This document shows, one piece after another, positions 2,545 through 27,560 of a stretch of DNA of 64,000 nucleotides. The notes beneath the pieces are model-generated. The model worked only from the letters and a program-made list of their open reading frames with translations. It was not told the DNA's origin and made no database searches. Positions within the stretch are counted from its first letter, which is position 1. Each line of letters starts with the position of its first letter. Source of the stretch: Nitrososphaerota archaeon (GTDB taxonomy: Archaea; Thermoproteota; EX4484-205; JAAOZP01); NCBI GenBank assembly GCA_011605725.1, contig JAAOZP010000011.1:1-64000 (forward strand). The letters run 5' to 3'. The position numbers and the translations under genes are program-made.

Positions 2545-3879
2545 TTATTTCGCGAATTTTCTTAACGGGTCTGTTTCCACGTACTTTATCAGGATTAGCA
2601 GGCAGGGTATTAACGTTACTGAGGACACGGGGCCCCATAGCAACAGCCCCATGGAGTAAGCCTGTCCAGGGGCTGGCGGCAGGTCTGCAAGAAGGCCGGA
2701 TACGTAGCGTGCTAAGGCTTGCAGTATGTTCAGCGGCACGCTGACTAGGCCGACGTAGCTGCCTGCGCGAGCCTCTCTCTTAGACAACTCGTCTTCCTGC
2801 GCCATGTCTGCTGTAACAGGGTTCGGCAAGAGGTACCAGCCTGAAATCCCTGCTCCGACGAATGTGACGAACAGGACTGCTTGAACCAGCCTGGGAACAG
2901 GGCTTAGAACCGGCTGGCCGAAGACTAGCGTTAAAGGTAGGAAAACAACTAGAATCATGAGGGACGTTACTAGTGGCTTCTTCTTCCCGGTTTTCCTAGC
3001 TATCCTTGCCCAGACGAAGAATAGCACTATGGTTAACAGGAGCATGAGGCCTCCTGCCAACATATACTCGACGTCGCCTAGGCCCAGAACTCTTTGCAAA
3101 TAGCTTATAACTAGGCTTGCGAGAACAGCTGTTGGAATAGACATCGCTCCCTGGAGGGCAAGCCACGCCCGGTAGTTCCTGTTGCTCCAAAGTATGGAGA
3201 GCTCTCTCCGAACACTGGGTTTAGGAATCGGTTTCTCCTCCTCCCTTATCTTTAAGACGGCCGGCATGTACAATACTATTTCAAAGACGGCTAGAGCCAG
3301 CAGTATCCCTAGGAAGGCTGGAGAACCTGTTTTCAGGAGTGTTGGAAGCAGGAAGCCGACGGGTATTCCGACGACTTGCGCCATCATGCTGAAAATGTTC
3401 TGGTATGCTGAGACTGTAACTCGATCCTCGGGGCCGACTATTTCCGCGAGCCACGCCATGTAGGGCGTGCTTAGAAGCCCGTAGCTCATGTTCGCAAGGC
3501 TGATGAAAAAAGTCGCGTACGTGAACAACAGTGTTTCATCCGTAACCGGTATGAAGTAGCTCGGCATGAATATCATGATGGTTGAAAACGCTAGAAGCAG
3601 GCTTCCTGCTAGAACATACTGTCTGCGTCTACCCCATTTTTTTGACACAGTTATGTCGCTCAGGTAGCCGAAGTACCAGCCGAAAAAGGCTATGACGAGT
3701 TTTCCGATGGCGAATGCTACGCCGGTTAGAAAACCACTAAGCTTCAGAAAATCCCAGTAGAACCAGAATGTTGCAAGATCTATAAGGGACAAGAGGGTTG
3801 AGGAGCCGAGTCTCCCCATGGCGTATATTAGCATTCCCCTCCTGGTTAGCAACGATGCTTCACCTGAAATATGCTGCAT
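2545..3879 (-). CDS. MFS transporter, GPH/MelB-like (glycoside:cation symporter) family
   Basis: About 12 TM; GYLSD...WGRRR loop; PYMAWLAEI; GKKKP; DMAQEDE...REARAGSY. Confidence 0.85.
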   Translation of the reverse strand: MQHISGEASLLTRRGMLIYAMGRLGSSTLLSLIDLATFWFYWDFLKLSGFLTGVAFAIGKLVIAFFGWYFGYLSDITVSKKWGRRRQYVLAGSLLLAFSTIMIFMPSYFIPVTDETLLFTYATFFISLANMSYGLLSTPYMAWLAEIVGPEDRVTVSAYQNIFSMMAQVVGIPVGFLLPTLLKTGSPAFLGILLALAVFEIVLYMPAVLKIREEEKPIPKPSVRRELSILWSNRNYRAWLALQGAMSIPTAVLASLVISYLQRVLGLGDVEYMLAGGLMLLLTIVLFFVWARIARKTGKKKPLVTSLMILVVFLPLTLVFGQPVLSPVPRLVQAVLFVTFVGAGISGWYLLPNPVTADMAQEDELSKREARAGSYVGLVSVPLNILQALARYVSGLLADLPPAPGQAYSMGLLLWGPVSSVTLIPCLLILIKYVETDPLRKFAK

Positions 3880-4096
3880 AATAAGTATATAACGTTTTCA
3901 AAAACTGGCTTCTCAAAACCTGTTGCGAGCTGGATGGACATAATTTTTAACCAGCCTCCTCGGCAAGCCTGATTTGGCAATGTCATGATTGTTGAAGGCA
4001 GGGGTAACGTATCCTTTAGAAAGGACTTTTCGAAATCACGTTTTGCGAGCCACTTTTAAATACTGTCGACACTCCTTCAACCCGGTGGGTGGAAAA

Positions 4097-4723
4097 ATGA
4101 GGATTGAGCCGAGGAAAACCGTGGAAATAGATGTTTTAGAGGAAGACCTTTTCGTCGGGGCTTATTCAACCATTAAGGCTAAGACTGGTGAAGCAATCAT
4201 CGTGAAGGGAAACGTGGAGTTTGAAAGGGATTGCAATATTCTTTCCAGCCTACGTGCTTACAGTATTAGCCTTGAAAACGGTGGGAAGATTAATGTTCAG
4301 GGTGATCTTATCGTGGAGAAATCAGTCAGGCTTGAGGATGGTGAGCTGCTGGTGAGTGGAAGGCTTGAAGCCGAAGACGTGGATGTGGGGAAACTGGTTA
4401 AGGCGGGTAATGGTTTGAAATGCAGGAGTATAAGTGTCGGGGGAGGTTTAGAATCAGGGGGCGACGTGGATGCTGAAAACATAAGCGTTGGCGGAACAAT
4501 GTCTGTTCAGGGGAATGTGAAGGGGAGTAGGCTTGGTGTAGGGGGCACGCTGACTGTTAAGGGTTTAACGGAGCTTGAGAAGCTTGACGTTGGAGGCGTA
4601 GCGAGGATCAACGGGGGGATAATAATGGATATAAATGTTGGGGGAGTTTTTGAATCGGCTGGAAAACTGGTTTTCGAGAGGCTGAACGTGGGAGGGGTTG
4701 CGAGGCTGAAGGTGGTGGATTAG
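4097..4723 (+). CDS. Bactofilin-like / polymer-forming cytoskeletal beta-helix repeat protein
   Basis: About 17-aa repeats (xVGGxLxVxGxV); start placed at ATG 4097 after GGTGG. Confidence 0.65.
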   Translation: MRIEPRKTVEIDVLEEDLFVGAYSTIKAKTGEAIIVKGNVEFERDCNILSSLRAYSISLENGGKINVQGDLIVEKSVRLEDGELLVSGRLEAEDVDVGKLVKAGNGLKCRSISVGGGLESGGDVDAENISVGGTMSVQGNVKGSRLGVGGTLTVKGLTELEKLDVGGVARINGGIIMDINVGGVFESAGKLVFERLNVGGVARLKVVD

Positions 4724-4724
4724 G

Positions 4725-5321
4725 ATGGGTATAAAGGGGACGCATGTTTCAGTCGGCGGTGTTCTGAATGTTGACGGAAGCATGGAGGTTGACGAAGTAA
4801 GGGTTGGAGGAACAGTCGAGGTTAAAGGCTTCTTTAAGGCAAAGAAAGTATCGGTTGGCGGAAGGCTGAAAGTGGATGAGAATGCTTCAGTGGAGGACAG
4901 GCTGGAAGTAGGTGGGGTTGTGAAGATAGGTGGAGAGTTGAAAGCCGGCATGGTTGAAGCAGGAGGAGCTTTAGAGGCTGATGCCTGTTTCGCCGACGGC
5001 GTTAAGGTTGGTGGAAAAGTGGAGACTAGGAGGGGTTGCAGGTCTAAAACTTTTGAAATAGGGAGGAAGGGCAGAGTCATAGGCCCTGTTGTCGCCGAGT
5101 ACGTGAAAATAGGTCGTGACGCTAGTGTTGAGGATGTTTACGCCGGTCGGCTCGAGCTCTTGGAAAACTCTTCAGCCCGCAACGTTTACGCTAGGGAAGC
5201 TTATTTGAAACATGGTTGCAGGGTTTCCGGTGAACTCCTGTATGTTGAGAAGCTGGAGCTTGAACGCTTGACGCAGATTAACTCTAGGAAAGTGGAGAAG
5301 CTTCCTGAGCCTCCCGTCTAA
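4725..5321 (+). CDS. Second bactofilin-like beta-helix repeat protein (tandem paralog)
   Basis: Same VGG repeats; starts 1 nt after the previous stop. Confidence 0.65.
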   Translation: MGIKGTHVSVGGVLNVDGSMEVDEVRVGGTVEVKGFFKAKKVSVGGRLKVDENASVEDRLEVGGVVKIGGELKAGMVEAGGALEADACFADGVKVGGKVETRRGCRSKTFEIGRKGRVIGPVVAEYVKIGRDASVEDVYAGRLELLENSSARNVYAREAYLKHGCRVSGELLYVEKLELERLTQINSRKVEKLPEPPV

Positions 5322-5370: not shown

Positions 5371-5652
5371 ATGGGTAAGGCGAAGAGGCATAGGCTTCAG
5401 CTGTACGCGGATATTCTCAGGACGTTGAAGGTTCATGGGGAAGGGTGTGGAATAACAAGGTTATCATACGGGGCCAACATGCCTCTCGACAGGGTTAAGA
5501 AACTTGTTGGAGAACTGGCTTCACACGGGTTGATAGCTAAAAGCACTGATGACCCGAGAATATTCGTCTTAACAGCAAGGGGAATGGAGTTTCTAGATGC
5601 TTTCGACAAGCTTGCAATCTTTCTTGAAGAGTCTTCACAGTCTTCTTTTTAA
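5371..5652 (+). CDS. Winged-helix transcriptional regulator (archaeal HTH_45-like)
   Basis: KRHRLQLYADIL...ITRLSYGANM...LTARGMEFL pattern. Confidence 0.8.
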   Translation: MGKAKRHRLQLYADILRTLKVHGEGCGITRLSYGANMPLDRVKKLVGELASHGLIAKSTDDPRIFVLTARGMEFLDAFDKLAIFLEESSQSSF

Positions 5653-18237: not shown

Positions 18238-19257
18238 GTGTTTGTGAAATCGATCTGGATGCATCCGGCAGATTTAGACGAGTCAAGAGACCGTTTGAAA
18301 CAAGTATTCTCAAAACTAGCTAAACACGGGTTCTCTAAGGTTTTCCTGTTTGTAAAGAACAGCGATGGCACTGTCATCTTCAGAACTAGGAACCCAGAGA
18401 TCCGTTCTACTATGTTCAGCACGGGTGAAGACATTCTTAAGAATGCGATTATGGTTGCGCATGATTTAAACGTGGAAGTTCACCCTACTTTCGTAGTTTT
18501 CTGCGAAGGCAATTGGAAAGGATGGGGAATGCCTTCTGAGCCAGGGGTATGGCTTTCGAAAAACCCGAGTCTAGTGCAATACGACAGGAAGGGAATACCG
18601 ATAATGAGATGGGCGGATCCTGCTAAGACGGAAGTTAGGAGACACGAGGCAGAGTTAATGCTTGAAGTTGTGAAAAACTATGATGTGGATGGGATCCAGC
18701 TGGATTATATAAGGTATCCTGAGGAAGCCGAGGGTTGCTTCTGCGATCATTGCAGGAAAACTTTTAGAGAACTGCATGGAATTGACCCTAAAGACATAAC
18801 TCAGCCTGATCAAAACATGAGCAAATGGGTTCAATGGAGGGCTCTGAACATCACTAGTTTCGTCGAGGAGCTTAGACTTGAATTGAGACGGGAGAAAGCG
18901 AGTGTCAAGCTTTCAGCCGCAGTCTTTAAAGACTATCCCAGATGCCTAGTCACGGTTGCTCAAGACTGGCCCTTGTGGGTTAAGAAAGGGTTTTTAGATT
19001 TCATCTGTCCAATGACTTACGAGTATGACTCTAAAGTAGCCAGGTATCTTGCTAGGAATCACAGAGCTGCTGTCGGTGGCGGAGCAACCATATATGAAGG
19101 TGTTGGGAAGAAATCCAGCCAATCCATCCTGTCCTCTGTTGAAGTTCTTGAACAGGCAGAGATTTTTAAGGAGGAAGGGGCTAATGGAATTACAATATTT
19201 GCCTACTCCTCCCTAACTGACGATGATCTTAATACTCTTGATAAATTAGGAGACTGA
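18238..19257 (+). CDS. Glycoside hydrolase-like 10 (GHL10/DUF187, YddW/DigH-like TIM barrel)
   Basis: AHDLNVEVH, ADPA..EVR, NYDVDGIQLDYIRYP, LSAAVF, QDWPLW...DFICPMTY. Confidence 0.85.
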   Translation: MFVKSIWMHPADLDESRDRLKQVFSKLAKHGFSKVFLFVKNSDGTVIFRTRNPEIRSTMFSTGEDILKNAIMVAHDLNVEVHPTFVVFCEGNWKGWGMPSEPGVWLSKNPSLVQYDRKGIPIMRWADPAKTEVRRHEAELMLEVVKNYDVDGIQLDYIRYPEEAEGCFCDHCRKTFRELHGIDPKDITQPDQNMSKWVQWRALNITSFVEELRLELRREKASVKLSAAVFKDYPRCLVTVAQDWPLWVKKGFLDFICPMTYEYDSKVARYLARNHRAAVGGGATIYEGVGKKSSQSILSSVEVLEQAEIFKEEGANGITIFAYSSLTDDDLNTLDKLGD

Positions 19258-19453
19258 TTCATTCTTACTCTATAGGCATATTCCACTTAAGAATCCTACT
19301 GCTGGCAAAAAGCTCGTCAGCGCGCGAGAATCAGTCCTATTAAAAGTCGAAAACAGGAGCCTCATATCATTGCTAGAACACTCTAAAGCTCCTTATTAGG
19401 AGGAGAATGTTTCAAAGCAAGGATTAAATACTCTTCTTTCATTCGCGAAAGCG

Positions 19454-19717
19454 ATGGAAGACAAGCTCGTGCTTTGCATACTAATCGTCTTCTTCACGCT
19501 GCCCGTCATTCTAAATGCTTTTATAAAGCTTGAGGATGTTCCAAGCCGATTAACGGTTACTCTGAAAGAAATAACCGTGAAGGTTCCGGGCTTAGAATCT
19601 GCCTACCACTGGGTGAAAAAACTCACGGCTGAAGGATACCTTGTTGAGCTCCTCCCCATAAATGAGCCAGGATATCTATATGAAATACATGGAATAAAGT
19701 ATATTTTTCAGCAATAA
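19454..19717 (+). CDS. Small hypothetical protein with N-terminal TM/signal
   Basis: TATA (TTAAATA ~19424) about 25 nt upstream; hydrophobic N-terminus. Confidence 0.55.
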   Translation: MEDKLVLCILIVFFTLPVILNAFIKLEDVPSRLTVTLKEITVKVPGLESAYHWVKKLTAEGYLVELLPINEPGYLYEIHGIKYIFQQ

Positions 19718-20112
19718 TAACAGGGTGGATTCACATATGTTCAAACACAGTCTTCAAAAAGCTAGCGCACGCATAGTTGGCTGAATACATGTTAGACAAG
19801 TATGTTGAACCCCCAAGGTTAAGAATTGGTCAAAGATTCCTCACCATAAATACTCCGGGTATTCATCAAGCTCTTCAAAGGCGAGAGGCTTTTGAAGGAG
19901 GACGAAGAGGCTGAGAAGAAATTGAGGAATATGGACTGGAATCTCATTAAGCGCGCTAGCAGCATGAGAGATAATGTCTCCTTTTTAGAAGAATTAGATT
20001 TTTGAAATCGCATAATCGTCCTTTTTGCACCTTAATCTTTAGAGGAGCCTAAAATTTTGAAGCCGGATGCGGTAGAAAAGTTAAAATTCCTCCGCGAGGT
20101 CTTCACATTGGC

Positions 20113-20817
20113 TTGACTGAGCTACTCTATATGGATGATTCGTATTTGAAGGAGTTCGAAGCCAGGGTTGTTGAAGTCTCGGGAGACAGTGTAGTGCTTG
20201 ACAAGACGGCATTTCACCCTAGGGGAGGAGGTCTTCCAGAAGACACCGGGGCTCTTATTAAAGAAGGGAGGAAAGTAAAAGTCGTTCAGGTATCAAGCGA
20301 AGGGGGAAGGGTCCTGCATTCCGCGCCAGGTCACGGGTTTAGCGTGGGCGATACTGTCAAAGGTGTCCTGGATTGGGAGAGAAGATACCTAATCATGAGG
20401 ATGCACACAGGTATTCACGCTTTAGCATCGGTTTTCAATAAGAGGGCTGGGGCCCTGATAACTGGGAACCAGGTTAACGTGGATAAGTCTAGGCTCGACC
20501 TGAACCTTGAGAAGATGGATAGGGCCCTGATAGATGATGTTTTCCGTGAAACTAACACGGAGCTCGCATCAGGAAGGACGGTTAAGATATACTATCTTCC
20601 AAGAGAAGAGGCCCTTAAGATACCTGGGATAGTTAAGCTGGCCGAGGCAGCGCCGCCCAGTGTTGAAAGGCTCAGGATAGTTGAGATAGAGGGGCTGGAT
20701 ATTCAGGCTGACGGCGGGCCTCACGTAGCTAACACAAAGGAAGTTGGGGAGCTAGTCCTCTTAAAAGTCGAAAACAAGGGGAGGAACAATAGGAGAGTTT
20801 ACTTCACGCTTAAATAA
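20113..20817 (+). CDS. alaXM: Alanyl-tRNA editing protein AlaX-M
   Basis: LLYMDDSYLKEFEA, FHPRGGG..D.G, RMHTGIH, QADGGPHV. Confidence 0.92.
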   Translation: MTELLYMDDSYLKEFEARVVEVSGDSVVLDKTAFHPRGGGLPEDTGALIKEGRKVKVVQVSSEGGRVLHSAPGHGFSVGDTVKGVLDWERRYLIMRMHTGIHALASVFNKRAGALITGNQVNVDKSRLDLNLEKMDRALIDDVFRETNTELASGRTVKIYYLPREEALKIPGIVKLAEAAPPSVERLRIVEIEGLDIQADGGPHVANTKEVGELVLLKVENKGRNNRRVYFTLK

Positions 20818-20941
20818 CTGTATAGCGTGCACTGGAAAAACAAAAAATCTTTTGAATGTCCAACAGTTAAGGCAAGTTTAACCTGATTTCAACCTACTTG
20901 CAGATACTAATCAAAAATGGGGAAAATAAGGGAGGTTTTAT

Positions 20942-21925
20942 TTACATGCAAGGAAGCCCATAGCTATAGTAAAAGTTTACATTGCCCCAATGATTCTCTC
21001 CACCCCAGCAATCGTGACCCACTTGGGCAGTATTTTCAAAATTCACTGAGAGGAAAGGAGGCACGTAGTAAAGAAGAGCAGATGCTCTACCTCTCGCCTC
21101 CACATAACAGGCAGTTGTATGTTGCCCTGAAACTTCTTTATTTAACCAGCATGTCGTCCAAAGTGGAAAGTGAACTTGATGAGAAGTATATGCATAAACC
21201 CAAATTTCAACCCCATAGTTCCAGTAAAAATCTCCTGCTGCAGTCACCGAATATATCAAATTAGAGCCTAGATAAGCGGATGTCGTAGTCCAATCATAAG
21301 TATGGTAGATGGTTCCTTCTACGTAAGTTATAGAATTTATTTGAATCGGGATTTCATAGTAAGTTGCTTCTCCCTTTACTTCGTAATGAATTTTCTCATT
21401 GGTTGTATCATTGTAGGACTTTGAATAAAACGTCCTTAGGATAAAAATGCCTACTTGAGTCGTTTTTTCTAAAACATCTATCTTACCTTTGGATAGCTTC
21501 CAAGAAACCTCAAGATAATGGTTAGGTTTGTCCGTTGAAAAAATTGTTATATAATAGTTCTCTATAACTTCAAATGTAGCAACCTCTTCAAAGGGAAACA
21601 TTCTCTTCAAGATCTCTTTACTTTGAGGCTCTATCTCCACTCTTTTATAAGGAAAACTTTTTGGAATTCTGTTAAATTTATTTATGAATGCTTGAGTTGT
21701 ATTGATTACTTCCGGCATATTATTTTGTGGAAACTCAATTCTAAAACTTACGTTCGTGTTCATACAGGAAGGACAAAAGGGGCCGAGCCTGCTGCTTATC
21801 CCCATCGAGAATGGAATAGTGCTAATTGTAAGAAAACTAATGCATCCAATAGTTAGGAAGATCAGGAAAGACCCATATGAAATTATCTGATCCCAGAACC
21901 TTGGATTCTTTACTCCCTCTTTCAT
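20942..21925 (-). CDS. Hypothetical exported / membrane-anchored protein (AT-rich, aromatic-rich beta C-terminus)
   Basis: Long open frame; TM near the N-terminus; start placed at ATG 21925, uncertain. Confidence 0.6.
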   Translation of the reverse strand: MKEGVKNPRFWDQIISYGSFLIFLTIGCISFLTISTIPFSMGISSRLGPFCPSCMNTNVSFRIEFPQNNMPEVINTTQAFINKFNRIPKSFPYKRVEIEPQSKEILKRMFPFEEVATFEVIENYYITIFSTDKPNHYLEVSWKLSKGKIDVLEKTTQVGIFILRTFYSKSYNDTTNEKIHYEVKGEATYYEIPIQINSITYVEGTIYHTYDWTTTSAYLGSNLIYSVTAAGDFYWNYGVEIWVYAYTSHQVHFPLWTTCWLNKEVSGQHTTACYVEARGRASALLYYVPPFLSVNFENTAQVGHDCWGGENHWGNVNFYYSYGLPCM

Positions 21926-21958
21926 AAACCAATGTAGTTGCCAACTTAATATAAGTTT

Positions 21959-22146
21959 TGCGCGCGCTTTTTTACGAATATAATTTATTGGGCACACGCT
22001 GATATACTTCATGGAAATGGTAAGATATTAGCACGCGTCAGTGTAGGTAAGGCATATAATTTATCAGGTAAGCTATAGATATAGCAGATATTAATGGTAA
22101 ATACGTTAGCGCGTGCTTACAAATATAAATTATCGAACGCGTGCTG
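21959..22146. repeat. Cluster of five AGC(RY)n motif copies in mixed orientation
   Basis: TGCGCGCGCT (21959), GGCACACGCTG (21991), TAGCACGCGT (22029), TAGCGCGTGCT (22107), AACGCGTGCTG (22136). Confidence 0.6.
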
Positions 22147-22207
22147 TGATATCTACAACGAGCTATAAAGCAAGGTTTTAATACTACTTTAAAACTAGTT
22201 TTTATTA

Positions 22208-22479
22208 ATGACCGAGAAAATTACTTCCCTGAAACTCGATTCAGAGCTTTGGAGGAGGGTGAAACTACTTGCGATAAAAGGGGGGTTACTCTTAAAAGTT
22301 TAATTGAAGAATTGCTTGCCCTTGAGGTTTAGGGAGAAGAATTTTTCGAAGGCGAAATGCGAGTTTCAAAGGAACTGTTAGCAGCTTTGGAAGAAAGGAG
22401 GAAGAAAGGAAGAGTACCTTTTGTCATCAAATCGAAGAAAAGCGCTATTGAACTTGTAAGAGAAGGAAGGGGAGAATGA
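22208..22479 (+). pseudogene. RHH-type antitoxin pseudogene
   Basis: MTEKITSLKLDSELWRRVKLLAIK, then a frameshift in a G run, then VTLKSLIEELL..., an in-frame TAG, and ...SAIELVREGRGE*. Confidence 0.7.
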
Positions 22480-22486
22480 AAGTAAG

Positions 22487-23001
22487 TTGGATACTCCTAG
22501 CTACTACGTTGACACCGGCCTCATAATAGCCAGTATAAACCGTTGGACGAACTGTATGAGGATTCTAACGCGTTTTTTGAAAGCAACTTTAACTTCGTAA
22601 TATCCCCGATTACACTCGTTGAATTATATTGCGTTCTCTCAAGATTGAGAAATGAGCTTGACATTCCGTTTAAAGCAGAACCTTTAATGGATACACTGGT
22701 AACATTCATAATAAAAGACTGTAGGCTTAAGTTATTATCAAAAAGTTACTGCATAAAAAGGGATTTCGCTGGATATGCTTGTAGAATTAGTTTGGAGCAC
22801 TACGTTGCAACTAAGCTGGCAGGCTCATTATGCCTTAGAACACTGGATATGCTCCACCTGTCTTATGCGTGGATTCTGAAGAAAACATCCGGCATAAATC
22901 TATTCGCCACTGGAGACGAAGAAATACTTCAAAAAGCAGAGAGCATAAGAAAAAGCCTTGGTATCAAAGTTTATCATCCGAAACAAGCAGTGCGAGCCTA
23001 A
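22487..23001 (+). pseudogene. PIN-domain (VapC) toxin, frameshifted near the N-terminus
   Basis: YYVDTGLII is in a different frame from ...YKPLDELY...ISPITLVEL...LRTLDMLHL...FATGD. Confidence 0.75.
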
Positions 23002-23275
23002 AAATATGCTATACTTGGAAAAGGACAAGATATTTAACACCGTCATCATTTCCAATTCGCTTCAAATCCCATAGGCTTCCTCAACTACCTTCTATACTGT
23101 TCTTATTCCCCTTCATCTCATTTTAGCGTGCGCGGAATAACGATCTTTAACCATCGAGATTCATCAAACCCTGTTTGAGGAAGAGGATAGATAACCATAA
23201 AACGGAGCAGAGACTCTACCTGCTGCCCCCATGTAACAGGGTGGAGATATCAAGAGTAAATACATTATTAGCCGG

Positions 23276-23449
23276 CTACAACGCAAGTAAGGTTTTACTT
23301 TTTCCGACTTGCCGCGTCACTAGGTCAACTTCAAGCCAAGGCTTAGAAAGCCTTGTAAGCCAAATATGCTCTCATCTTCTTTAGCGAAAGCCAGGATTGT
23401 AAGTGCTTCCTCCCCCTTCATATTTTACGAGAACATGCCCTACATCTCT
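23276..23449 (-). pseudogene. C-terminal remnant of a clan AA (AF_0612-like) aspartyl protease
   Basis: With two frameshifts it reads RDVGHVLVKYEG-EEALTILAFAKEDESIFG...SLG-EVDLVTRQVGK..LLAL*; it begins exactly at the TAGCGCGCG motif (23450). Confidence 0.55.
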
Positions 23450-23580
23450 TAGCGCGCGAAGCAAAATGCTGACAAAATACAATTTTGAAGAGGATATAAA
23501 AAGCTTCTACAAAAATGGAGAACAAGTATAGTACGGTAACGCATTCAAGATGCTAAATCAGCTTTTGCAGTACTACAGTA

Positions 23581-23685
23581 TCAAGCCAGAGAATCCTTCG
23601 ACCATCTACTCCAATTGCTCCATTGTGTGTCTTTATTTTTTAGAGGTATTATTCTTGGTTTTTCTAATCGCTTCTCTTGTTTCAT
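23581..23685 (-). CDS. Putative RiPP precursor peptide, 34 aa: MKQEKRLEKPRIIPLKNKDTQWSNWSRWSKDSLA
   Basis: Manual translation; GGTGA RBS (23691-23695) 5 nt before ATG; KPxxxxL-type leader; core of three W-S-x triplets; divergent from the RRE and rSAM genes. Confidence 0.8.
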   Translation of the reverse strand: MKQEKRLEKPRIIPLKNKDTQWSNWSRWSKDSLA

Positions 23686-23823
23686 TTCTATCACCGTTGT
23701 TTTTCCTTTTGGAAAACTTTTAAATCTTTACTTCAGATTTTTTTAAAAAAAATAAAGAAATGTGTACTAGCTTTACTTTTCAGCAAAATATTTAAGACAC
23801 CACACTATGGATTTTTAAACGTA

Positions 23824-24195
23824 TTGGAAAATAAATATATCGGATTATGCCAAAGAAAGAAAGTATCGCTTTCCAAAAAGTCAAGAATTATGCTTAGTCC
23901 TGAGTATACTTTAAGGCTTGAATATTTCGGGGGACTATTATATAATAGGATCACACATGACCTATTCGCCCTTAATGAAAGTGCTGCTGATATGCTTTTT
24001 CTTACCCAATATTCTTTATCAATAGAAGAAATTACTGAAGCATTGAGCAAAGGTGTAAATGAAGGGAAGGATTCGGCAAGCTCAATCATCGAGTTTTTGG
24101 ATTCTCTGTGGATAGCCGGAGTTATAAGGAAAAGTGAGAAGCATGGAAACTTAAATAGGGCTTTAAGTATATTAGGAAAGGTCAGAAACTTGTGA
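23824..24195 (+). CDS. PqqD-family RiPP recognition element (RRE), MftB/PqqD-like (start TTG 23824 or ATG 23890)
   Basis: LSPEYTLRLEYFGGLLYN...FALNESAADML...SIEEITEAL...IIEFLDSLWIAGVI; GTGA overlap with the rSAM gene. Confidence 0.8.
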   Translation: MENKYIGLCQRKKVSLSKKSRIMLSPEYTLRLEYFGGLLYNRITHDLFALNESAADMLFLTQYSLSIEEITEALSKGVNEGKDSASSIIEFLDSLWIAGVIRKSEKHGNLNRALSILGKVRNL

Positions 24196-25265
24196 ATAGC
24201 CTTAGCTATTTATCAGCTCCGATAGAAGCATTTATTCACTTAACATGGAGTTGTAATATGAGATGTGGTTTCTGTTTTGTAAATGCACCACGAAAACTTT
24301 TACGTAGTCAGTTAGCTTTGCATGAGATAAAAAGAACTATAGATGAATTAGCTGGGATGGGTGTACTGGAGCTGACTATAACAGGTGGTGATCCGCTTTT
24401 AAGCCCCATGTTTATTGAAGTAGCTGAGTATGCAAAAGAGAAAGGACTTATAGTAAACGCTACTATAAATAGTTTGCTTATTAATGAAAATGTAGTAAAC
24501 GAGTTGATAGAAAATCACATCAATGTGCAAGTTCCTTTACATGGTCCAGCCCGTGAACTTCATGATGAATTAACTAACACTCCTGGATCTTTTGATAAAA
24601 CATTAAATGCTATTACACTTTTAGTTAAAGCAGGAGTTAACGTGACGGTTGCAACAACTTTACAGAGAGCAAATAAAGATGTAATTCTTAATATGGTACC
24701 ATTGATTAAATCGCTAGGAGTGAATTTATGGAATATTACGGAGCTGAAACCTGTCGGAAGGGCAAATTTTTCAATGACAATCCCTCTTTATGAACGTCTG
24801 GGACTCCTTAAGGAATTAGAGGAGGAAGCAAAGAAGTATGGTATTCGAATAACAGCCGAGAGAGCATTTTGGTTTATTAATGAGTGTTTTAAAGATTTAC
24901 GCCACATTCTTACCACTGAAGAAGGCCATAAACTTTTTACTCGATGTGGTGCAAGAGTTGGACGATATACTGAAATTACACCTGACGGATTTGTTTATCC
25001 CTGTGATTTGTCACTCGGTCTCGGGTCTAATGAATTCATTGCAGGAGATTTACGCGGACAAACATTCAAAGAGATATGGCACTCATCACCTCTTCTTAGG
25101 AAGATCAGGAGTATTAGAAAAGAGGATATGCATGGAAAATGTAGAGAATGCCATTATTTTGACATCTGCGGAGGAAAATGCAGAGTCTTGGCGTATAAGT
25201 ATTATGGCGATCTTTATGCTAGCGCGCGCGCTTTCATTTCATACTCCAAAGTCTGCAAACCGTAA
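24192..25265 (+). CDS. Radical SAM/SPASM peptide maturase (PqqE/MftC-like superfamily); C-terminal tail apparently replaced
   Basis: CNMRCGFC; TGGDPLL; SPASM CGA...ITPDGFVYPC and CRECHYFDICGGKCR...GDLYAS. Confidence 0.92.
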   Translation: MNSLSYLSAPIEAFIHLTWSCNMRCGFCFVNAPRKLLRSQLALHEIKRTIDELAGMGVLELTITGGDPLLSPMFIEVAEYAKEKGLIVNATINSLLINENVVNELIENHINVQVPLHGPARELHDELTNTPGSFDKTLNAITLLVKAGVNVTVATTLQRANKDVILNMVPLIKSLGVNLWNITELKPVGRANFSMTIPLYERLGLLKELEEEAKKYGIRITAERAFWFINECFKDLRHILTTEEGHKLFTRCGARVGRYTEITPDGFVYPCDLSLGLGSNEFIAGDLRGQTFKEIWHSSPLLRKIRSIRKEDMHGKCRECHYFDICGGKCRVLAYKYYGDLYASARAFISYSKVCKP

Positions 25266-25605
25266 GGAAGACTACATCGTATCACTTAAGATAGTTGGGC
25301 ATGAACTCCTTCATATGTATCTGGACTTAGAGTTCCTCAGAAAAACCTTCTTAACTATTAGTCCTGGTATGTATCTTGTGGAACCTAGCAATAGGTTAGT
25401 GGAGATAGAAGAAGCTATAGCGGAGGCCGTTTCCAGTATTATAGTAAAAAATATATTGGGTAATGGAGCAGTAGCTATATTAAGCCTATCAAAATATGCT
25501 CGTAGCTATAATTCACATGTCCTAAATGAAGTCATCAGCTTAGAAAAGGTACCTCGAAAGTTCTTATCTATGTTAGTAAAAAACAGGGATGTTACGCCTT
25601 GCTGA
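25230..25605 (+). pseudogene. C-terminal part of an HExxH (gluzincin-like) metallopeptidase, probably 5'-truncated
   Basis: VGHELLH...IEEAIAE; the stop overlaps the MFS start. The upstream part of track ORF 24880-25605 is an alternate frame inside the rSAM gene. Confidence 0.6.
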
Positions 25606-26813
25606 TCTCTAGACTAAGAGAATCTGCTTACTTTGCTCTGTTCAAGTGTCACAACGTCAGGACCCTTATAATAGCGGATTTTATAGAAACCCTTGCAGTA
25701 GCCTGTCTCTTTGGTTACTATCTAAAAATGTTGATGTATGATATGGGTGGTGCTGAACTCCTGGGCATCTATTCGACGCTCAGTAACACGCTCTTATGGT
25801 TTACTCCTATGCTGGGAGGAACGTTCAGCGATGCTTTCGGAAGGAAGAAAATGATTCTGGCCTGCGTACTGTTCGGCGTTTTAGACCTAGTGATGCTCGC
25901 CGCCATCCGCTTTCACACAGCTAAAGTGATTCTGGCACTGCTCCTCCAAGCATCGTTCATTATTGCTAGTCCGGCTAGAGCGGCGTTGCTCAGTGAATCC
26001 GTTCCGCCGGAACATGTTGGCAGAGCTTTCTCACTCCAACTTTTCATCGAAAACATTTCATCTATGGTGAGCTACATGGTGTTCGGCTACATATTATCAA
26101 CTGCGGATGTGTATATGGCGTTCATTGCTTCAGGCCTACTCTTTTCTACTTCTCTAATCCTATACATGTATACTCATGAAACGTTAAAACGGAAGATGAC
26201 TCAGCCAAACTTTTTCTCTGCCCTACTAAAAACATTTATTAAAGGTATTAAGTTTGTCGGTAAACGAGCTCACCTACTTCTCCTCTTAGTATACTTTGCA
26301 TTTGATGGCTTCACGAGCTCTATAGCAGCTCCTTTCACTCCTGCGTTCCTGGGAGAGACGCTTTTCCTCAGTACCATGGAAATATCCATGCTCTACACAA
26401 TCTGTGGCATTGCAGTAATTATTGGTGTTCTCCTTATTGGTATTGTGGTTGATAAATTGAGGAAGAGCCTGATACTACTTATCACTAAGGATGCCTTTGC
26501 TTTCCCGCTTCTTCTGGCATTCGCGTTAGCTCCCCCGTTAATGGCGGCGGCATCGATGGTCGCTTTAGCCTTTATCGAACAATTTAGCATAGGAGTGAAC
26601 CGATACGTGGTTGAAAAGACTGAGTCGGAGCACAGGAGCTTGGTATTTGGGCTTATAAACACCGTGAAACAAATATCTGGAATACCGGGTCCTCTGATGG
26701 GGATCCTCCTATGGAAAATCTCTCCTCGCATCGTCTTCGTAACTCCTGCCGTAACTATACCGCTGGGCATCATAATACTACTCATGGCGCTTAGGCTTGA
26801 TAAAACGTCCTAG
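25599..26813 (+). CDS. MFS transporter (DHA-like exporter), probable RiPP export/immunity
   Basis: GGTFSDAFGRKK motif A; ALLSESVPPEHVGRAFS; about 12 TM; coupled to the upstream ORF. Confidence 0.85.
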   Translation: MLISRLRESAYFALFKCHNVRTLIIADFIETLAVACLFGYYLKMLMYDMGGAELLGIYSTLSNTLLWFTPMLGGTFSDAFGRKKMILACVLFGVLDLVMLAAIRFHTAKVILALLLQASFIIASPARAALLSESVPPEHVGRAFSLQLFIENISSMVSYMVFGYILSTADVYMAFIASGLLFSTSLILYMYTHETLKRKMTQPNFFSALLKTFIKGIKFVGKRAHLLLLLVYFAFDGFTSSIAAPFTPAFLGETLFLSTMEISMLYTICGIAVIIGVLLIGIVVDKLRKSLILLITKDAFAFPLLLAFALAPPLMAAASMVALAFIEQFSIGVNRYVVEKTESEHRSLVFGLINTVKQISGIPGPLMGILLWKISPRIVFVTPAVTIPLGIIILLMALRLDKTS

Positions 26814-26950
26814 ACCTTAATCTGAGGAATCGTTACAACGCCATTACACGATAACTGGAAGATGAGCTTCAACCTCACCACTCTTGTTCCAATAAGTCTT
26901 CATCTGCAACCGGCATGCTTAAATAATGCTGCATTGAAAAAGCTATTAGC

Positions 26951-27127
26951 GTGATCAAGCCTGAGACTGCACGTGGAATGGCTGCTCTCGCCAGGTTGAG
27001 GAACCTCATCGTGCACAGGTACTGGCTGGTTAATGACTCAAGGATCTATCGGGAGGCTAAAGCCTCCGGTATGCGGCTGATTAGCAAATTCGTTGAGGAG
27101 GTGAGGGAGTACGTCGAGAGAGGTTAA
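26951..27127 (+). pseudogene. HEPN (DUF86) toxin, C-terminal half only
   Basis: VIKPETARGMAALARLRNLIVHRYW...REYVERG* with the RNxxxH motif; the fragment begins at TAGCGTG (26947). Confidence 0.75.
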
Positions 27128-27560
27128 GTACTATGAGGCGGGGTCACAGGAGAAGGAAGAGGCGCTAGAAAAGCTCCGTGAGTATCTTTCGCGGCATGGA
27201 GAAGTTCTTGTGGCTGTGGTTTACGGAGGCTTTACGCGGAGGAATTTCTTCAGAGACATGGATGTGGCAATTTATACAGGCGGCCTGGTTGAGGACCCGC
27301 TTAGCCTGGAGAGCGACCTTTGCATCGAGCTCTCAAAAGTGCTCCGTATCCCTGTTGACACCAGAGTTGTGGATGACGCTCCGCCATGGTTTAAGCTTAA
27401 AGTACTGACGAGCGGCATGGTGGTATATGAGAGGAAGCCTGGGGCTTCAACGTTGCTTCTAAAGGAAGCCGTTGGGATCTGCAAGATCTGGCAATTAAAC
27501 TTGCAACTAACCCGTAAGTCAACGCGATGCATAGGCTTACCCACGTATAGCGCGCGCTAA
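27111..27560 (+). pseudogene. Minimal nucleotidyltransferase (MNT) antitoxin, degraded
   Basis: VVYGGFTRRNFFRDMDVAIY...PVDTRVVDDAP. Expected start after the GGAGGTGA RBS is ACG. Probable 1-nt deletion near 27475 (GDLQDLAIKL is out of frame). Confidence 0.7.

Follow-up and report, generated by a model that had tools for sequence, protein, structure and literature searches.

Alternating GC tracts at the joints of a mosaic island in an uncultured archaeon, and a primase-like protein with an adjoining RNA as their candidate writer

The DNA analysed here, referred to below as the window, is a stretch of 64,000 nucleotides starting at position 1 of contig JAAOZP010000011.1 of a Nitrososphaerota archaeon. 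Its source genome (G000) is a metagenome-assembled genome of 2.23 Mb in 20 contigs, 93% complete. In and near the segment between an AlaX-like and a glyoxalase-like gene the window carries short tracts of alternating G and C. The origin of these tracts is the subject of this work, together with a primase-like gene that lies outside the window and has, with an RNA encoded downstream of it, become the candidate for their writer. The original prediction had listed 14 copies of the motif between positions 19318 and 27559. All strings were found where they had been placed, and 13 of the 14 are genuine tracts, which on inspection of the sequence are either alternating G/C or variants differing from it by one to two transitions; the string at 26947 is the exception. 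Relative to (GC)n, CpG has changed to TpG or CpA in the variants. The features of the region are listed below (the tracts are given without strand). Comparisons were made with genomes of relatives (G002, G006, G007, G008, G015, G016 and others), metagenomic contigs (L152-L190) and metagenome runs (X1-X5).

19319-19327, no strand: joint tract AGCGCGCGA, 60 bp past the GHL10-like gene; left edge of the mosaic
19328-19762, plus strand: fragment B with an open reading frame of 87 amino acids (19454-19717); homologue in G006:C99
19763-19775, no strand: decayed joint tract TAGCGCACGCATA, separating fragment B from fragment C
19950-19958, no strand: joint tract AGCGCGCTA, synteny breakpoint
20113-20817, plus strand: AlaX-like gene (tRNA_SAD, Pfam), left backbone gene
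20823-20832, no strand: decayed joint tract TAGCGTGCAC, left border of the island
21960-21967, no strand: GCGCGCGC within a T-run (comparison with G002)
21992-21999, 22031-22038, 22107-22116 and 22137-22144, no strand: four decayed tracts bracketing TATA-like snippets
23124-23134, no strand: joint tract TAGCGTGCGCG (comparison with G002, X3 and X5)
23450-23459, no strand: joint tract TAGCGCGCGA; X5 departs just past 23450
24192-25219, plus strand: radical SAM/SPASM gene (PF04055, PF13186), 3' end cut off at the joint
25220-25232, no strand: deletion scar TA(GC)5T, joining the truncated radical SAM gene to a 5'-truncated HExxH gene
25233-25605, plus strand: fragment of an HExxH protein, at least 80 N-terminal codons missing
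25599-26813, plus strand: MFS transporter gene (Pfam), intact in the window; G002 retains the last ~180 bp
26947-26958, plus strand: start region of a HEPN gene, TTAGCGTGATC; not a scar
27548-27559, no strand: perfect joint palindrome TAGCGCGCGCTA, right border of the island, conserved in G002

The tracts are concentrated in this region, as had been claimed: six of the ten strict tracts of (GC)3 or longer in the window fall within the 8.2 kb (binomial p = 6e-4). The G+C content of 19318-27559 is 37-44%, compared with 46-50% in the surroundings. Every join of the window is bridged by contigs of independent samples, 35 kb and 66 kb in length.

The region from the AlaX-like to the glyoxalase-like gene appears to be a patchwork of about ten unrelated pieces of DNA, with the motif copies as its seams. 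The pieces between the tracts have other neighbours in G006, G016 and G008, which identifies the island as a mosaic set between two backbone genes. No paralogue of the island was found elsewhere in G000 at the nucleotide level. In G016 and G008 the AlaX-like gene is followed by the glyoxalase-like gene within 1.1-1.6 kb, and the homology of these two genomes with the window stops at 20816 and 20805, respectively, with different DNA beyond. G002 is collinear with the window contig at 81-95% identity, and its homology blocks terminate exactly at the motif. Thus the expectation that the motif marks the island borders and the places where accessory cassettes were gained, truncated or lost was borne out by the comparisons with G002, G006, G016 and G008.

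Several of the seams could be located to the base. Left of the AlaX-like gene, the homologue of fragment B in G006:C99 lies ~500 bp upstream of the cassette encoding the 172-residue and radical SAM proteins and does not adjoin fragment C; homology with G006:C99:6426-6549 begins at 19775, the right edge of the decayed tract, with the fragment B homologue 6 kb off. At 19950 the homology with G002 (94%) starts whereas the left flanks are unrelated; the same join reads AGCGCGCGC in G002, and loose ends were seen at 19951 and 19960 in X3 and X5. The stretch 23124-26634 is missing from G002, where the join, CCGCGCGGG, runs into the middle of the MFS gene; X3 and X5 have a G002-like allele at this place. 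At the right border G002 carries 117 extra bp immediately past the palindrome (27559), and the backbone glyoxalase-like gene comes next. The tract at 19319, which is spanned by contigs from four independent assemblies, is presumably a joint as well, judging from the pattern, and so probably are the four decayed tracts at 21992..22144, which G002 also has, altered by additional transitions. G016, G007, X1 and X5 share a breakpoint at 22168.

The string at 26947 has a different history. Here ~240 bp of the HEPN gene were lost between direct repeats GCGTGAT(T/C)AA. The full gene is kept in G002, X1 and X2, and G002 has the repeat at both ends. The loss (26947-27127) is an ordinary microhomology deletion adjacent to scar-type joints.

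The original prediction took the motif for a pre-existing preferred site of recombination or integration. This did not agree with the unbroken alleles in G015, G002 and X1-X3, which lack it. The gene interrupted at 25220 is intact in G015, a genome having neither the motif nor the candidate enzyme: its HExxH frame (G015:C80) encodes 207 amino acids with 64% identity from query residue 118 onward, homology with the window starts at 25232, and the parent allele reads GATATTCGTATTTCATTC at the position of the window's (GC)5. In three independent metagenome assemblies (X1, X2, X3) 329 letters stand in place of the window's 25221-25231. At 21960 G002 has T8 where the window has TTTT-GCGCGCGC-TTTTTT, i.e. 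an insert of 8 bp plus two extra T. Similar pairs were found elsewhere in the genome. At G000:C7:191785 CGCGCGC lies between duplicated CTTT(T)AAT, of which G002 has one copy; at G000:C1:25848 CGCGTGC connects the vapB end with the final ten codons of vapC, and G002 retains 457 bp of vapC at this place. The MFS gene located between the AlaX-like and glyoxalase-like genes is intact in G008, whereas G016 lacks ~1 kb and has GCGTGCTA at the join.

The reverse case, in which the window represents the motif-free state, was also observed. A strain deletion of 21091-25484 is sealed by GCGCGC, and the window is motif-free at both positions. X1, X2 and X3 have a new GCGCGC in place of 23263-23467, with the window motif-free at 23262, and X3 and X5 have GCGCGCGC in place of 21913-22079, with the window motif-free at 21912 and 22080. 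Each joint gained 6-12 new bases, and the number of GC units varies. Since the unbroken alleles lack the motif, the tract was added at the joint and was not a pre-existing target; the tracts are thus very probably filler synthesized de novo during joining.

The association with breakpoints was also tested over a larger region. In 313 kb of G002, 17 of the 99 homology block ends had GCGCGC or CGCGCG within 10 bp of the block end in G000, as compared with 0.6% of random positions and 2.8% of random intergenic positions (p = 3e-9 against the latter). The predicted enrichment of the motif at synteny and indel breakpoints was therefore confirmed. Its frequency also exceeds the Markov background, as suggested: under a maximal-order model AGCGCGCG is the top over-represented 8-mer of the genome (359 observed, 242 expected). 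The 2.23 Mb of G000 contain 229 sites of GCGCGCGC, i.e. (GC)4, where base composition predicts ~17. A sequence logo made from the 359 copies reads T-A-(GC)4-T-A, giving the consensus TA(GC)4TA, and there was no conservation beyond its 12 bp. Of the TAGCGCGC half-sites, 78% fall within the intergenic 13% of G000, a fraction defined by crude calls of open reading frames; overall 66-78% of the sites are intergenic. Extended scars of the type GCGCGCTAAAAAC were found three times against ~0.45 expected, which is weakly significant. The exact 12-mer occurs 28 times in G000 and 35, 26, 14, 11 and 9 times in some congeneric species; several other members of the genus, all with a completeness of 91% or more, lack it. 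The bases after GCGCGC in G031 are AT instead of TA; the same AT bias was seen in G032, which shows no enrichment.

A candidate for the enzyme writing the tracts is encoded by a second gene of archaeo-eukaryotic primase (AEP) type, located at G000:C7:378918-379796. The only Pfam match of its product is a weak one to the primase small subunit (PF01896, 31.5 bits, cut-off 26.8); it was not detected with PF09250 (Prim-Pol). A profile of the protein matched the PriS chains 9f28, 1g71 and 1v33 with E values between 4e-10 and 1.5e-9. The catalytic motifs DxD and SGxxGxH and the later D are present, and in alignment A2, which extends down to 31% identity, residues D124, D126, S174, G175, G178, H180 and D232 do not vary. 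These features assign the candidate to the AEP superfamily as a PriS-like member.

AEP homologues or fragments were detected in G000, G002, G016, G007, G006, G012 and G008 (fragments only) and in G023 (31% identity). Homologues or remnants were present in 8 of the 10 relatives having the exact 12-mer and in none of the 21 lacking it. In G000 the gene ends a block of repair genes (C7:376638-379796) consisting of Dpo4, a RadA paralog and, directly following, AEP. The RadA paralog is 50% identical to the housekeeping RadA (C11:75612-76538), and in this clade it occurs only where full-length AEP is present. It adjoins AEP in the Brockarchaeota clade only and not in L154, L160, L165 or L185, so it does not belong to the minimal module. 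The neighbours of AEP differ in distant lineages.

Ten bases past the AEP stop codon a conserved element begins, which reads CAUG(A/C)GCGCUAAAAAC and continues into a 9-bp stem around a GNRA hairpin. The GCGCUA segment proposed as template is single-stranded and lies just 5' of the conserved stem-loop. G000 has one copy of the intact RNA, at C12 ~18860-18930, behind radA2 and AEP scraps. Metagenomic AEP homologues with 37-50% identity are organised in the same way: the stem sequence is a different one in each of 24 lineages, and the predicted template region is single-stranded 5' of the stem in all of them. MAFFT combined with RNAalifold gave no structure for these 24 diverse RNAs owing to misaligned stem columns, and the RNAs were therefore aligned on the basis of a model. 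In this alignment, which was fitted to the model and is thereby biased toward the structure, 96% of the cells are paired and all nine stem pairs have compensatory changes. The covariation score was 0.55, compared with 0.17 in shuffled alignments and 0.08-0.15 with slid partners. No Rfam family matches the RNA, and no recognisable RNA was found downstream of the G023 AEP homologue (31% identity).

Copying of the GCGCUA template would yield the tail 5'-TAGCGC-3', which is half of TAGCGC-GCGCTA, the TA flank included. If the RNA serves as template, lineages with other templates should have other scars, and palindromic 8-mers were counted per contig without bias toward any sequence. In eight contigs with GCGC-type templates GCGCGCGC was the top palindromic 8-mer, with up to 19 copies per 20 kb. 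L160, whose template is UAGCUAGCUA, contains AGCTAGCT nine times in 13.4 kb (the template copy included) where 0.2 is expected (p = 1e-12), and there are nine dispersed (AGCT)n tracts of the type TAGCTAGCTA outside the template. L164, with the template UGCAUGCA, has (TGCA)3-4 tracts (p = 3e-10). The predicted product sequence thus follows the template across three classes, (GC)n, (AGCT)n and (TGCA)n, and all three template classes are self-complementary, which fits pairing between tailed ends.

One further contig, L166, contains both (TGCA)n and (GC)n tracts (340-352, 5518-5526, 3134-5271); its RNA has the template region AAUGCAACGCAUAAAG.

We consider it likely that the tracts are newly written at joints and that the writer is AEP copying the template of its RNA. 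After a break in the DNA, AEP would copy the 5'-GCGCUA-3' template, and each 3' end would gain a tail 5'-TA(GC)n-3'. Such tails are self-complementary, so that pairing would be possible between any two ends carrying them, and fill-in and ligation would then produce TA(GC)nTA. Depending on the ends joined, the outcome would be a deletion, the capture of a fragment or simple re-sealing, and the tract would later decay by CpG transitions. The function would be akin to that of telomerase at internal breaks, on a primase fold. The part of AEP and its RNA as the writer is inferred from the sequence comparisons described above. With somewhat less confidence we suggest that uncultured archaea (Brockarchaeota, Bathyarchaeia-like) possess a two-part end-joining machine, a primase-fold polymerase with its own 3' RNA, which puts lineage-specific self-complementary tails on any 3' end.

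Several observations do not fit AEP-RNA synthesis easily and weigh against it. L154, L156 and L161 carry AEP and RNA with other templates and have no matching tracts. The template is GGGCUA in G006 and only (GC)2 in G000, whose commonest scar is (GC)4. The full-length AEP genes of G000 and G002 are trailed only by a non-folding remnant of the RNA; the intact RNA of G000 follows a second, decayed module copy, which would require the RNA to function in trans. G009 and G010 (89-92% complete) contain a few exact 12-mers, yet no AEP was found there, and the relatives compared are non-independent samples.

Some further features of the RNA were noted. In the RNAs of L152-L190 there are two elements resembling a C box, (R)UGAUGA, with CUGA upstream (ACCCUGAG), all of which may be k-turn sites bound by L7Ae. 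At G000:C4:116984-117093 a scrap of the RNA (GCTAAAAACAGGGCTGCC) is cut off by a GTGCGCAC tract, which makes the RNA gene itself a victim of the same joining process. The scars at G000:C7:96698 and G000:C11:28798 continue as GCGCGCTAAAAACACC, in agreement with the remnant behind the full-length AEP gene and not with the intact C12 RNA.

Among the other explanations, the one that survives best, although it is unlikely, retains de novo filler and dispenses with the RNA: the tracts would be made by terminal-transferase or slippage synthesis by PriSL or another polymerase, high temperature would favour self-pairing GC repeats, and the link between the AEP-RNA pair and the scars would be indirect. 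Archaeal PriSL does mediate microhomology end joining and has terminal-transferase activity (PMC12019639), and both the short (GC)2 template of G000 and the full-length AEP lacking an intact adjoining RNA would be easier to understand. On the other hand, such synthesis leaves unexplained why the scar changes with the template in unrelated lineages (AGCT repeats in L160, TGCA repeats in L164) and why the TA flank of the scars corresponds to the UA after GCGC in the RNA. Moreover, PriS is present in all motif-free relatives.

Footprints of mobile elements, either excision scars of a TA-targeting cut-and-paste transposon or REP/MITE-like repeats, are very unlikely. The TA flanks do resemble a TA target duplication, and two simple insertions have flanking duplications, of 2 bp and 7-8 bp. 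However, these duplications are occasional and not of fixed length, and genome-wide there was no excess of direct repeats flanking the tracts (11 observed, 13.7 in shuffles). The lack of conservation past the 12 bp rules out an element of the MITE type, and what the tracts replace are arbitrary genes, 107 bp to 4.4 kb. REP/REPIN sequences with a RAYT were considered and rejected on the same ground and because PF01797 (Y1 HUH transposase) was not found in the genus.

Also highly improbable is a pre-existing site at which a site-specific recombinase or integrase (att-, attC- or HIP1-like) shuffles cassettes. Such a site would account for the motif at both island borders and at cassette junctions, and some joins (19950, 27548) bear it in both genomes. 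Against it stand the parent alleles without the site, the one-ended events whose other end point lies in arbitrary sequence, and the variable tract length, (GC)3 to (GC)5 or more. The analogies drawn in the original prediction did not hold. For an att-like site, the motif should be present in the window at 21091, 25484 and 23262, where it is missing, and the joints show a net gain of bases instead of conservative exchange. HIP1-like sites would be spread everywhere at about one per kb, whereas the 229 (GC)4 sites of the 2.23 Mb genome are mostly intergenic. Profiles of two families, C5 methyltransferase and Y1 HUH transposase, were run across the relatives to look for a co-occurring enzyme, and neither family was found in a genome bearing the motif; PF00145 was the one methyltransferase family covered.

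It is hardly credible that the tracts are a selected signal, i.e. a site for a transcription factor or chromatin protein, part of a terminator or a Z-DNA element, which happens to lie in long, indel-prone intergenic regions. The sites are strongly intergenic and the copies near 22000 flank TATA-like boxes. Yet the motif sites of G000 favoured neither the promoter nor the terminator side and no particular type of intergenic region, copies are found inside broken reading frames (25220, where the radical SAM/SPASM frame continues into the GC tract), their base-exact coincidence with homology ends contrasts with the 2.8% for random intergenic positions, and they decay by transitions instead of being conserved. 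Finally, assembly or binning artefacts, although G000 is a metagenome-assembled genome of 20 contigs, have practically no chance of explaining the joins, because these are spanned by four independent metagenome assemblies in contigs of 35-66 kb from independent samples and studies, several are common to G002, and a 12-bp repeat is too short to mislead assemblers.

The putative AEP-RNA system resembles several known ones in part. Telomerase (TERT plus telomerase RNA) also adds repeats de novo at internal breaks. Common to both would be a structured RNA dedicated to the polymerase, in which a short template adjoins a conserved helix, together with the addition of a fixed short sequence to DNA 3' ends and a product that follows the template across lineages. 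Whereas telomerase is a reverse transcriptase, the candidate described here has the AEP/PriS fold; its product would be self-complementary and serve to connect two ends within a circular prokaryotic chromosome instead of capping a linear end, and the tracts are 6-12 bp, not long arrays. As its only Pfam match is the primase small subunit, AEP would be like telomerase or DRT10 in action and is not a member of the family.

DRT10, DRT2 and DRT3 are bacterial defence systems composed of a reverse transcriptase and a non-coding RNA (bioRxiv 10.1101/2025.10.16.682844; PMC12039810; 10.64898/2026.05.04.722794). Like the proposed system, they pair a prokaryotic polymerase with a non-coding RNA of its own, encoded next to it, as the template for short repeat DNA. 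They differ in that their polymerases belong to the reverse transcriptase family and are protein-primed, the systems serve phage defence, and their products have not been reported as chromosomal joint filler; here an AEP enzyme would act, with the products fixed in the genome at joints.

Double-strand breaks are also acted on by AEP-family enzymes in the PriSL(X)-mediated microhomology end joining of Saccharolobus (PMC12019639) and, through the AEP polymerase domain, in Ku-LigD non-homologous end joining, in which ends are extended and annealed via short complementarity. These pathways use available microhomology or a few untemplated bases, in contrast to the fixed, lineage-specific self-pairing sequence seen here. 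Ku (PF02735) was not found in G000 (93% complete). HIP1 (GCGATCGC) of cyanobacteria and the REP/RAYT sequences are likewise short GC-rich palindromes over-represented genome-wide; HIP1 is ~10 times denser, occurs also in coding sequence and is not tied to indel joints, and REP elements form longer, imperfect hairpins of 20-40 nt and are accompanied by the RAYT transposase, whereas no Y1 transposase was found here.

A literature search found no paper on these tracts, on this AEP-RNA pair, or on Brockarchaeota together with primases and GC palindromes. The rejoining of double-strand breaks in most archaea, which proceeds without Ku, has been an open question, and here hundreds of joints, each with its fixed self-pairing patch, are recorded in one genome. 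If AEP and its RNA are the writer, this would be the first RNA-templated DNA polymerase on a primase (AEP) fold and a functional parallel to telomerase that arose independently. The capacity to join any two DNA ends would explain the accumulation of mosaic accessory islands and gene scraps. The two-part machine would drive deletion, gene capture and island building, leaving datable scars genome-wide. The scars would provide a natural marker for dating or counting rearrangements, and the enzyme possibly a thermostable tool for sequence-tagged end joining. The proposal makes a falsifiable prediction: a change of the template should change the patch.

Some minor observations concern the contents of the island. 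Between 21968 and 22165 there are three TATA-box-like snippets of ~20 bp (ATATAA(A)TTAT), each lying between decayed GC tracts, which gives the impression of a single short promoter fragment pasted in several times over. The vapB/vapC pair at 22190-23001 lacks single bases after 22275 and 22532 in comparison with all four independent assemblies; either the window copy is frameshifted or these are consensus errors. The label 'aspartyl-protease remnant' given earlier to 23136-23449 could not be confirmed, there being no Pfam match. The genes at 23677-26813 encode, in this order, a 172-residue protein, the radical SAM/SPASM protein, the HExxH protein and the MFS transporter, and look like a peptide-maturation and export cassette. 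This cassette is half destroyed in the window and has been deleted differently in G006 and G002.

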